A stretch of 64,000 bases of DNA from Escherichia coli. Lineage in GTDB: Bacteria; Pseudomonadota; Gammaproteobacteria; Enterobacterales; Enterobacteriaceae. This document shows positions 1 to 3,000 of this stretch, piece by piece; within the stretch, counting starts at the first letter, position 1; every line of letters starts with the position of its first letter. The position numbers were made by a program. The stretch lies in the NCBI RefSeq assembly GCF_050320075.1, contig NZ_CP190018.1. One strand, written 5' to 3'.

Positions 1-3000
1 ATTTACATATTGAAAGAGAATTTACTTTTATTCATAAATTATTTTTCTGGAAGCATTTTTAGGTAAATAATGACTAAAGTGAAAAATATTATTGGGTCTT
101 GATTTTATATTAATTATAGTGTTTTAATATTATATCGTTGCGAAATTAATATCACAAGATAGTCATCGCCATGTGATTGTTTTTGACTTTAATTTATTCA
201 CTGGATTTTTGCATTTGCCGTTTTTTTGAACTTATTCTTCATTATTGAGATGAAAAGTTTCAGTAATTATTATCCCCGCCTATTAATTAAGTTTTTCTAA
301 CTTTGAATGTTAGAAAATCTAAATTGCGTCAGTCATATTAAAATATCAATATGTTCGGCACGCCAAAGAATATTGATTCAAGGGACCTGTTTTTTCAGAA
401 TCTGAAAATATGTTCATTGGCTGGTTAAAAGTCGCTGCAAAAAATTGAAGAAGCTCTGTGTCAATATTTCAGTTGGCTTATATTCTAATTATTTATGATT
501 TAAGGACAAATAATGAGTAAGTTTGTAAAAGCAGCAGTTGCCACGGCAATGCTCATGGGGGCGCTGACTTCAGCATCAGTCGTTGCCGCAGGGAACAACG
601 GTACAGTGAGATTTTACGGCACAATTGAAGACTCCCCGTGCTCAATTGTTCCTGACGATCATAAACTGGAAGTGGATATGGGCAGCATCGGTACGGGTTC
701 TTTAACCGGCGGCAAAACAACCACACCAAAAGATTTCCAGATTCGTTTACAGGACTGTAATTTCAATACAGAAACGACAATGGCTACCACATTCACCGGT
801 AATCCGTACTCCACTAACGCAGATAACTATTCTCTGTCTAACATGGATAATGGAACTGAAATTCCAAACGTTAGCCTGGTTATCGGTGACCAGCACGGTA
901 CAGGTTATGCACTGGGAGCAGAGATTAAGCAACCTATCGTGAAGGACAGTTCAACGGGAAAAGGCAAGCCTAAACAAACTCTGAACTTTAAAGCATGGTT
1001 AGTGGGTGAAACGGATGCTGTAACACCAACACCGGCACCGTTTGAAACGCTGACGACGTTCCAGATCACGTATCTCTAATGTATTTCCCCCATAGCTGCA
1101 AAGTTATGGGGTTTATAACTACCAAATAACTAAATTATAAAAAATCATGGATGGATACGCCGATGCCAGAACATTCTTTTCTCCGTTTACGGGGGCTTTC
1201 GTGGTGGATTGCTCTGGCAATTTCTGGAAGTCCATTTAATGCCCTGGCAGACGATACCATTCAGTTTGATGGCCGATTTCTTGATTTAAAAGGCAATACC
1301 AAAATTGATTTGGGCCGTTTTTCGCAAAAAGGCTATGTAGAACCGGGAAAATATAACTTACGCGTTCATGTAAATAATCAGCCGTTACCTGACGACTACG
1401 ATATCTACTGGTACGCAACTGAAAACGATCCGAATAAATCATATGCCTGCTTATCGCCAGAGCTGGTTGCCCAGTTTGGTCTGAAGGAAGATATTGCAAA
1501 GAATTTGCAATGGATCCGCGATGGTCAGTGTCTGAATACGGCACTTTTAGCAGGTACAGAAATTAGCGGCGATTTAGGCCAGTCTGCACTCCTTGTTTCT
1601 GTACCGCAGGCTTATCTGGAATATACCGACAGCGAGTGGGACCCGCCTTCGCGCTGGGATGACGGTATCCCTGGGCTTATTGCCGATTACAGTATCAACG
1701 CGCAAACCCGACATGAAAATGGGGGTGATGACACCAACGACATCAGCGGTAATGGTACGGTCGGCGTTAACGTGGGGCCGTGGCGCTTACGAGCTGACTG
1801 GCAGAGCGATTATCAGCATACGCGCAGTAACGATGACGGCGACACCGACGATAGCGGTACGCAAAAAAACTGGGAGTGGAGCCGTTACTACGCCTGGCGC
1901 GCCTTGCCGTCATTAAAAGCCAAACTTTCGCTGGGCGAAGATTACCTCAACTCCGATATTTTTGATGGTTTCAGTTACATTGGCGGCAGCATTAGTACCG
2001 ATGATCAAATGTTACCGCCAAATCTGCGCGGCTACGCCCCCGATATTTCAGGTGTTGCACACACTACCGCTAAAGTGACTGTAACCCAAATGGGCCGTGT
2101 CATTTACGAAACCCAGGTGCCCGCAGGGCCATTCCGCATTCAGGATATTGGCGATTCCGTCTCTGGCACGCTGCATGTCCGCATTGAAGAACAAAACGGC
2201 CAGGTACAGGAATACGACGTCAGCACGGCGTCCATGCCGTTCCTGACTCGCCCCGGCCAGGTGCGTTACAAAGTGACAATGGGGCGTCCACAAAACTGGG
2301 ACCATCAGGTTGCAGGTAGCTTCTTCTCGGGCGGCGAGGCATCGTGGGGGATTGCCAATGGCTGGTCGCTCTACGGCGGTGCGTTAGCCGATGAAAACTA
2401 CCAGTCGGCGGCGCTGGGCCTCGGTCGTGACCTGGCGCTGCTAGGCGCGTTAGCGTTTGATGTCACTCACTCTCGTGTTCAACTCGACGATAACAGCGTG
2501 TATGGCAACAAAACGCTGGACGGCAACTCTTATCGCGTCAGCTATGCCAAAGATTTCGATGAACTCAACAGTCGGGTGACGTTTGCTGGATACCGCTTCT
2601 CTGAAAAAAACTACATGACCATGAGCGAGTATCTGGATGCGAACGACGACGACCGGGCGCGCACCGGTAACGACAAAGAGATGTATACGGTCACCTATAA
2701 CCAGAACTTCACGGATGCGCGCGTTTCGGTCTATCTCAACTATTCCCACCATACCTACTGGGATCGCCAGGATCAGACCAACTACAACATGATGCTTTCT
2801 CATTATTTCAATTTAGGAAGCCTTCGCAACCTGAGCGTTTCTCTGACCGGTTATCGCTACGAATACGATAAAAGTGCTGACAAGGGTGTTTATCTGTCCT
2901 TAAGTTTGCCGTGGGGCGACAACAGCACCATCAGTTACAACGGCAACTATGGCAGCGGTGCCGACAGCAATCAGGTGAGCCTGTATCACCGCATTGATGA

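Follow-up and report, generated by a model that had tools for sequence, protein, structure and literature searches.

What is the role of the very A+T-rich DNA that precedes the yfc fimbrial operon in E. coli YZLc1-3? The window, by which we mean the whole 64,000-nt stretch that was analyzed, opens with 512 nt (positions 1 to 512) in which the RefSeq annotation has no feature. The base count there is 26.8% G+C, compared with 52.0% for the whole window, 53.0% for its annotated coding sequence, and 43.9% for its other intergenic regions when pooled. This low value is found along the entire region (21% to 32% G+C in 100-nt bins). Of the 34 intergenic regions in the window that reach 50 bp, none is as poor in G+C, the runner-up having 34.9%. 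No 512-nt stretch in the 64 kb is lower, and an equally low content occurs at a fraction of 6e-5 of the 512-nt positions, namely, the start of this region and its immediate neighbors; the frequency of TpA steps is 2.4-fold that of the entire window. The first-pass annotation described strongly AT-rich noncoding DNA before yfcV, which is borne out by these values. A correction concerns the extent: the length of 512 bp arises because the window edge cuts the sixA-yfcV spacer. In full, this spacer is 662 bp long and 29.2% G+C; positions 1 to 512 are its last 512 bp, and its first 150 bp, with a terminator-like hairpin of sixA, sit just outside the window.

The gene that begins at 513 is the ortholog of yfcV, the first gene of the operon, which encodes the major fimbrial subunit (513 to 1079, + strand). 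Its product matches Pfam Fimbrial (4e-18) and is 66% identical to YfcV of K-12 and 72% identical to YfcV of CFT073. The remaining genes on the same strand (1163 to 6932), assigned by annotation and Pfam, encode an usher, a chaperone, three minor subunits, and a YfcO-type (DUF2544) adhesin, and the locus lies between sixA and smrB, as does the yfc operon. With its usher gene before its chaperone gene, the operon presumably belongs to the pi-type usher clade in the scheme of Nuccio and Baumler (2007). In YZLc1-3, none of the seven genes is disrupted, so the earlier label “cryptic” applies in the sense of silenced and not in the sense of broken; since the operon in this lineage is intact and merely silenced, it could be expressed where H-NS is relieved. 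Directly 3′ of the yfcV stop codon is a 10-bp hairpin followed by UUUAU (1088 to 1111, + strand; predicted fold, −16.5 kcal/mol; z = −3.6), which is probably an attenuator or an mRNA stabilizer between the subunit and usher genes.

This intergenic allele is shared by E. coli 042 (97.1% identity across positions 1 to 512), and the fimbrial gene directly downstream of its spacer, EC042_RS13790, appears in the published list of genes that H-NS represses most strongly in that strain (PMC7582179). In RNA-seq of the 042 Δhns mutant, expression of this gene increased by factors of 235.5 (25 °C) and 4.2 (37 °C) (PMC7582179, Table 2A). Since every H-NS target in this data set responds strongly at 25 °C (PMC7582179), the influence of temperature is not peculiar to yfc; the effect on EC042_RS13790 itself could be indirect. 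Two properties place positions 1 to 512 in the H-NS-silenced class: A+T richness (26.8% versus 52% G+C) and derepression, the latter via the allele match and as measured in 042, not in the window strain.

The orthologous yfcV/sixA spacer of K-12 is a 489-bp “promoter island” that the ChIP data sets of Kahramanoglou and Oshima show to be occupied by H-NS and that is classed as transcriptionally defective (PMC3661553). It is also a genomic SELEX peak for the RpoD and RpoS holoenzymes in vitro, marked “HNS” (PMC3946193, PMC5493296). The K-12 ortholog is 48.5% identical to this allele; the binding data, for H-NS and RNA polymerase alike, are for that ortholog only, and we infer direct binding by H-NS for the allele in the window. 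Furthermore, yfc is counted among the cryptic fimbriae of the chaperone-usher type in commensal E. coli, which have been described as repressed by H-NS (PMC3559732, citing Korea et al. 2010), and yfcV expression was higher upon overproduction of TosR in CFT073 (log2 5.2; PMC5956150) and of BolA in E. coli (PMC4337573).

The base composition, the lack of coding sequence, the neighboring genes, and the response to hns deletion of the gene that follows this allele in 042, along with the K-12 binding data, make it very probable that positions 1 to 512 are the promoter-bearing spacer of the Yfc fimbrial operon and a platform for its silencing by H-NS. The earlier claim of an H-NS-silenced fimbrial promoter is thus supported by both the 042 Δhns RNA-seq and the K-12 ChIP results. 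Over the approximately 600 bp of 73% A+T DNA, H-NS, probably with StpA, would nucleate and polymerize across the spacer into the start of yfcV, and the resulting filament may either block RNA polymerase at the yfc promoter(s) or trap it there. The operon would then show almost no expression under ordinary culture conditions, with the tightest silencing at low temperature, and its expression would require that H-NS be removed or counteracted, for example, by higher temperature or by putative A+T-binding anti-silencers of the PapB/TosR type.

The spacer is part of a hyperdivergent yfc cassette of ~7.25 kb that is 40 to 82% identical to K-12, between flanks that are 94 to 99% identical. This sharply bounded allele is in keeping with the earlier description of the region as horizontally influenced, but the yfc locus is core to E. 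coli (PMC3559732). When the invariant end of the leader was scanned against one genome per species, matches were found in Escherichia only, and no outside donor was identified. There are four allele classes, with spacers of 566 to 680 bp, 26 to 32% G+C, and 45 to 59% mutual identity, and the identity between classes barely exceeds that of shuffled controls (z = 2 to 3). Spacer length and A+T richness are kept in other Escherichia species as well.

Variation within the allele class is unevenly distributed. Positions 1 to 200 are nearly invariant, with 526 of 633 genomes showing 99% identity or more, and they contain the best cross-allele alignment block of the upstream part (CTTGATTTTATATTAATTATAGTGTTTTAATATTATATCG, 98 to 138); the bin from 101 to 150 ranks with the less variable ones upstream of 450. 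The proximal segment (201 to 460) is variable, with 4 to 7% pairwise differences within the class by genome comparison, and its version in YZLc1-3 is rare: only 9 genomes match positions 201 to 400 at 99% identity or more, and megablast recovers this stretch from only 406 of the ~633 carriers of the allele. There is some chance, albeit a small one, that the spacer is modular and selected for physical properties over sequence, with a near-frozen distal module (−149 to 200) and a proximal module (201 to 460) that diversifies with the antigenic subunit gene yfcV. If so, recombination would shuffle proximal promoter variants with subunit variants and create strain-specific silencing set points for a “cryptic” fimbria.

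Because the spacer separates the terminator-like hairpin of sixA from yfcV, yfcV needs a promoter of its own. Our literature search found no published transcription start data for yfcV, and the promoter position can be approached through two candidates on the + strand. The distal one (TTGGGT-17-TATAGT, 92 to 120) is weak and unproven and was placed by positional homology to TTGAAA-17-TATAGT of K-12, which was proposed from RNA polymerase genomic SELEX (PMC3946193). Its −10 hexamer (115 to 120) is kept relative to K-12 and ends 392 nt before the ATG, compared with 383 nt in K-12, whereas its −35 hexamer is degraded. We rejected the K-12 SELEX promoter as a conserved yfc promoter, as the allele in the window retains just the −10 hexamer and the O157 and CFT073 alleles lack the site. 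The second candidate, which is the best sigma-70 match on the yfcV strand in the consensus scan (TTGAGA-17-TATTAT, 10 of 12; 245 to 273), is not conserved across alleles and has a −35 hexamer that is polymorphic within the allele class. The only block that is invariant across all allele classes by alignment is the translation initiation region (492 to 512, + strand, running on to 529 in yfcV), with the Shine-Dalgarno sequence AAGGA at 502 to 506, 6 nt before the ATG at 513.

The distal candidate raises the possibility that positions 1 to 512 form a transcribed 5′ leader of ~385 nt, starting from a promoter near 120, through which yfcV would be regulated after initiation via RNA structure, sRNA pairing, or Rho; silencing by H-NS could coexist with such regulation. 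The position of the K-12 SELEX promoter, the retained −10 hexamer, and the near invariance of the surrounding segment (1 to 200) are consistent with this idea. However, there is no Rfam match even at an E value of ≤1, the fold of the hypothetical 404-nt leader (127 to 530) is not significant (z = −1.6), and positions 140 to 460 are the least conserved part of the spacer both within and between alleles, such that the features of a cis-regulatory RNA or riboswitch (an Rfam match, a significant fold, sequence conserved across alleles) are lacking. Along with the absence of the candidate promoter from the O157 and CFT073 alleles, these results make a regulatory leader unlikely.

An alternative to the H-NS platform is that positions 1 to 512 are a passive A+T-rich spacer, which arose as a rapidly evolving fimbrial cassette underwent biased mutation under relaxed constraint, and that the Δhns effect on yfcV is indirect. 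The near saturation of sequence turnover between classes fits this explanation, as does the lack of any specific signal above the expectation from composition. With up to 2 mismatches allowed, the high-affinity H-NS consensus TCGATAAATT has 2 sites in positions 1 to 512, compared with 2.4 expected from shuffles, and the density of such sites is about 4 times that of the rest of the window. Mean intrinsic curvature in the Bolshoy/Trifonov wedge model, with approximate parameters, was 11.6, compared with 10.9 ± 1.2 in shuffles. A simple consensus scan gave 5 sigma-70 promoter-like sites, compared with 4.4 ± 1.9 in shuffles; the promoter island class of Panyukov and Ozoline is defined instead by PlatProm, as dense overlapping start points over at least 300 bp. 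The consensus scan for terminators gave a count no higher than the shuffle expectation. Since motif, curvature, and promoter counts match those of the shuffles, base composition alone marks the region as an H-NS site, and a passive A+T-rich spacer would be bound by H-NS anyway because binding follows A+T content. Nevertheless, length and A+T richness are kept in all allele classes and in other Escherichia species, no other intergenic region of the window approaches this composition, and the K-12 ortholog is physically bound by H-NS in ChIP. We therefore consider a purely passive spacer to be quite improbable.

The first-pass annotation also suggested that the region may contain phase elements, but every test for the known switch types was negative, and a phase switch is very improbable. 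Many fimbrial operons are phase variable, and a perfect 9-nt inverted repeat (5 to 13 and 346 to 354) brackets 332 bp, a size like that of fimS. However, perfect 9-nt inverted repeats number 2, compared with 2.6 expected in shuffles; each of the 634 allele-carrying genomes matches at a single place that covers 80% or more of the query; and, among the matches listed, each is a single collinear piece with no inversion seen. There is no recombinase or papI/papB-like gene between sixA and yfcV. A fimS-like invertible promoter would need flanking repeats in excess of chance, a neighboring tyrosine recombinase, and both orientations among genomes; the repeats here are at chance level, and the only neighbors are sixA and yfcV. 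A Pap-like Dam/Lrp methylation switch would need two GATC sites ~100 bp apart within Lrp sites and papI/papB-like regulator genes; positions 1 to 512 have no GATC, and the complete spacer has just two, separated by 11 bp and adjoining sixA. With respect to slipped-strand tracts, Tandem Repeats Finder (TRF) detects no tandem repeats, the longest homopolymer is T7, and comparison of seven genomes reveals a single 1-nt indel, in an A run. Finally, it is scarcely credible that the region conceals a small unannotated gene, e.g., for a fimbrial regulator or small protein, because the sole + strand open reading frame of at least 30 amino acids inside it (307 to 405, 32 amino acids, on the yfcV strand) was rejected for having no Pfam match and no conservation, its start ATG being missing from the aligned K-12 allele, and the one further frame of that size is on the opposite strand and overlaps the start of yfcV.

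Silencing of the yfc spacer by H-NS is of an already known kind, and the finding is correct but ordinary; on its own, the result matters little. It extends to the 042-type yfc allele the standard rule by which extreme A+T richness of the spacer in front of a chaperone-usher operon signifies silencing by H-NS, and it identifies as yfcV a gene that a published RNA-seq table for Δhns lists anonymously as “fimbrial protein.” Typing based on yfcV, as well as expression studies, should allow for at least four very different promoter/subunit alleles.

Among known systems, the K-12 sixA-yfcV spacer (promoter island 2453647_489; Panyukov and Ozoline 2013) has the same position, orientation, and role and is of similar dimensions (680 bp and 31.9% G+C, compared with 662 bp and 29.2% here). 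Its translation initiation block is identical and homologous blocks are recognizable, e.g., 98 to 138 with TATAGT, although identity over the alignment is only 48.5% and the K-12 usher gene yfcU is a pseudogene, whereas the YZLc1-3 operon is intact. The region upstream of EC042_RS13790 in 042 is of the same allele class and has the same flanking genes; it differs by 15 substitutions, of which all but three (at 90, 167, and 191) are within 201 to 460, including a difference in the −35 hexamer of the promoter-like site at 245 to 273. The mat/ecp, yad, yeh, and fimB/fimE/fimA spacers are likewise long, A+T rich, located before chaperone-usher operons, and silenced by H-NS: fimB, fimE/fimA, and yehD/yehE are also listed as H-NS-bound promoter islands (PMC3661553), and matA/matB and other fimbrial genes are derepressed in 042 Δhns (PMC7582179). 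However, fim has an invertible element and recombinases and mat/ecp has its own regulator, MatA/EcpR, while the yfc spacer has neither. Compared with the Pap (P pilus) region, yfc is without the papI/papB pair, the GATC pair, and the Lrp/Dam switch architecture, but it likewise has the major subunit gene first, the usher gene before the chaperone gene, and the same usher clade type, and it likewise responds to a PapB-family regulator (TosR, in CFT073).

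The intergenic region that precedes the fimbrial genes belongs to the locus called yfc in E. coli K-12. In the annotated record, the order is fadI-fadJ-sixA, the intergenic region, seven fimbrial genes, and, in the opposite orientation, smrB. The first fimbrial gene (513 to 1079) encodes a YfcV orthologue with a match to the Pfam Fimbrial family and protein identities of 66% to K-12 YfcV and 72% to CFT073 YfcV. The sixA stop codon lies 150 bp before the start of the window, and positions 1 to 512 make up the final 512 bp of a sixA-yfcV spacer that measures 662 bp in total. Thus, the 512-bp region described in the first-pass annotation exists, but its left border is the edge of the window. 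The 150 bp to the left of the window contain a hairpin followed by a U-run (−16.9 kcal/mol) that looks like a sixA terminator, which suggests that yfcV probably requires its own promoter within the spacer. The sequence from 1 to 1200 is 100% identical in E. coli YZLc1-3, a chicken fecal isolate (NZ_CP123240.1).

The G+C content of window 1 to 512 is 26.8% (21% to 32% in 100-nt bins), compared with 52.0% for the whole window, 53.0% for annotated genes, and 43.9% for the other intergenic regions pooled. Among the 34 intergenic regions that span 50 bp or more, this value ranks lowest, followed by that of the yfcV-usher spacer (34.9%), and it is undercut by no other 512-nt segment of the 64 kb. 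The remaining two long intergenic regions with relatively low G+C, alaA-lrhA (48513 to 49431; 919 bp, 38.3% G+C) and lrhA-nuoA (50371 to 50999; 629 bp, 38.6%), are far less extreme. No annotated features are found within 1 to 512, and the sole open reading frame of at least 30 aa on the yfcV strand (307 to 405) has 32 aa. It was rejected as a hidden gene, having no Pfam match and an ATG that is missing from the aligned K-12 allele. The description of a strongly AT-rich noncoding region upstream of yfcV is therefore confirmed, and both its composition and its context are established.

The window's spacer allele is carried at 90 to 100% identity by about 635 of 5,426 complete E. coli genomes, including the enteroaggregative reference strain 042 (97.1%), in which the gene directly downstream is EC042_RS13790. 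This gene is among the most derepressed in a Δhns mutant, by 235.5-fold at 25°C and 4.2-fold at 37°C, in RNA-seq data that read mRNA rather than H-NS binding and in which fold changes are much larger at 25°C for all H-NS targets (PMC7582179, Table 2A). A comparison of wild-type and hns backgrounds had been proposed for this region; its published equivalent on the same allele shows derepression at the mRNA level, establishing that the downstream gene depends on H-NS and supporting the claim of an H-NS-silenced promoter region of a cryptic fimbrial operon (PMC7582179). A survey of E. coli fimbriae classes yfc as core associated and functional but cryptic (PMC3559732); it also cites Korea et al. 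2010 for many commensal E. coli chaperone-usher fimbriae being cryptic and H-NS repressed (PMC3559732).

Binding of H-NS and RNA polymerase is established solely for the orthologous K-12 spacer. That spacer is one of 78 “promoter islands,” which bind RNA polymerase and yield almost no transcript, and is flagged as H-NS bound in the ChIP data of both Kahramanoglou and Oshima (PMC3661553). In genomic SELEX, it also gives a peak for the RpoD holoenzyme, labeled “HNS” and assigned the proposed promoter TTGAAA-17-TATAGT (PMC3946193), as well as one for the RpoS holoenzyme (PMC5493296). In CFT073, yfcV increases by a log2 value of 5.2 upon overproduction of TosR, a PapB-family regulator (PMC5956150), and overproduction of BolA likewise increases yfcV in E. 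coli (PMC4337573).

H-NS silencing of the yfc operon via the spacer is the most likely mechanism, and we hold it with considerable confidence. H-NS, probably together with StpA, would bind the 73% A+T spacer and polymerize along it, and the resulting filament would keep RNA polymerase from reaching, or escaping from, the yfc promoter or promoters. Silencing would be tighter at 25°C and would be relieved by temperature and by A+T-binding proteins that displace H-NS. We infer the direct binding of H-NS to the window allele, the mode of repression, and the identities of the antisilencers.

The known modes of fimbrial upstream regions (inversion, Pap methylation, slipped-strand change, structured RNA, H-NS signals, and promoters) were tested singly. 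The region does not test as a known RNA element, with no Rfam match at an E value of ≤1 and a fold z-score of −1.6 for a hypothetical 404-nt leader. The suggestion that the region may contain phase elements does not withstand the fimS-type, Pap-type, and slipped-strand tests. Window 1 to 512 holds two perfect 9-nt inverted repeats versus 2.6 expected from dinucleotide shuffles, and no recombinase gene adjoins the spacer. No inverted form was seen: in all 634 genomes with the allele, the query aligns in a single place over at least 80% of its length, and each alignment among the matches listed is one collinear piece. There is no GATC in 1 to 512 (the full 662-bp spacer has two sites, 11 bp apart, adjoining sixA), and there are no papI- or papB-like genes at the locus. 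Tandem Repeats Finder detected no tandem repeats in the region, the longest homopolymer in 1 to 512 is T7, and a single 1-nt indel occurs there across seven genomes. The H-NS consensus TCGATAAATT, with up to two mismatches, has two matches versus 2.4 expected from composition, at a density about four times that of the remaining window. Modeled curvature is 11.6 versus 10.9 ± 1.2 in shuffles, and promoter-like sites number 5 versus 4.4 ± 1.9 expected. As these tests are negative or at expectation, the region is marked by its composition and length, with no detectable discrete element.

In K-12, the SELEX-derived promoter is located 383 nt before the ATG. The homologous position in the window holds a candidate distal promoter on the yfcV strand that keeps the −10 element TATAGT (115 to 120), with TTGGGT as its −35 element; neither the O157 nor the CFT073 allele has this K-12-type element. 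On the yfcV strand, the closest fit to the consensus is TTGAGA-17-TATTAT (245 to 273), whose −35 element is polymorphic within the allele class. The sole block invariant across all alleles (492 to 529) comprises the Shine-Dalgarno sequence AAGGA (502 to 506), the ATG, and the first codons. With the promoter candidates unconserved or polymorphic and only this block invariant, the label “leader” is not yet justified. On the minus strand, a 10/12 sigma-70 consensus match, TTGTGA-17-TATAAT (129 to 157), points from yfcV toward sixA and sits in a block that hardly varies within the allele class; it could represent a divergent or antisense promoter or a mere effect of composition.

Alignment with K-12 from fadI through aroC reveals 94 to 99% identity in the flanks (fadI/fadJ/sixA and smrB/prmB/aroC) and 40 to 82%, with sharp edges, across the segment bounded by the sixA stop codon and the 3′ end of smrB (about −150, left of the window start, to about 7100). 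At 40 to 60%, the spacer ranks with the most diverged parts. The whole locus, spacer and seven genes, is a sharply bounded hyperdivergent cassette in which the minor subunits and adhesin (4600 to 6900) are as diverged as the spacer. At least four spacer/yfc allele classes occur in E. coli, represented by the window strain (662 bp, 29.2% G+C), K-12 (680 bp, 31.9%), O157 (645 bp, 28.8%), and CFT073 and PC-NDM34 (566 to 567 bp, 26.1 to 26.3%). Their pairwise spacer identity of 45 to 59% is just 2 to 3 standard deviations above that of shuffled-sequence alignments, and thus composition and length are kept and sequence is not. Such conservation would suit a function resting on physical properties, although it is no proof of one. 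This modular pattern, with composition conserved under sequence turnover, is the only mildly novel angle.

A scan for outside donors, with one genome per bacterial species and the invariant leader end as the query, gave matches from Escherichia only, apart from an E. coli-like contig in a “Collinsella sp.” metagenome-assembled genome. The matches were E. coli E69, E. whittamii (O157-like allele, 93%), and Escherichia sp. E1V33 (O157-like yfcV and spacer allele, 99.5%); the last two indicate that yfc allele classes are common to different Escherichia species. The contig (JAIJJM010000567.1; 2,180 bp) is most likely misbinned E. coli DNA, given its 98% identity over 1,300 bp to the window spacer and yfcV. 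“Horizontally influenced” is therefore correct in part: the locus is ancestral and fixed in position, but its alleles look old or exchanged by recombination.

Within the allele class, identity is at least 99% in 526 of 633 genomes for window 1 to 200 and in 467 genomes for the 150 bp upstream of the window. For 201 to 400, it is at least 99% in just 9 genomes, and megablast misses the segment in about 227 carriers; the window strain has a rare variant of this proximal segment. Among seven genomes, variable columns number 4/200 in 1 to 200 and 33/312 in 201 to 512, and yfcV has a mean difference of 5.6%. This unevenness could represent constraint on the distal part of the spacer or, equally, recombination carrying the proximal part along with the variable subunit gene.

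Directly after the yfcV stop codon, a 10-bp hairpin followed by UUUAU (1088 to 1111; −16.5 kcal/mol, z = −3.6) is probably an attenuator or mRNA stabilizer setting the subunit-to-usher ratio, a reading of the predicted fold that fits CFT073 RNA-seq data in which yfcV changes and most other yfc genes do not (PMC5956150). In E. coli C9, yfcV is shortened and is immediately preceded by a frameshifted IS1 transposase gene, which in turn follows the conserved leader-end match; this arrangement is one natural route of operon disruption.

The yfc spacer is unlike the invertible element fimS, lacking excess inverted repeats, an adjacent recombinase gene, and an inverted form, and is unlike the Pap methylation switch, lacking GATC in 1 to 512 and papI- or papB-like genes. 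The feature is of a kind already known, and the first-pass finding is correct: the region is the orthologue of the H-NS-bound yfcV/sixA promoter island of K-12, works like it, and belongs with the silenced spacers of other core E. coli fimbrial operons.
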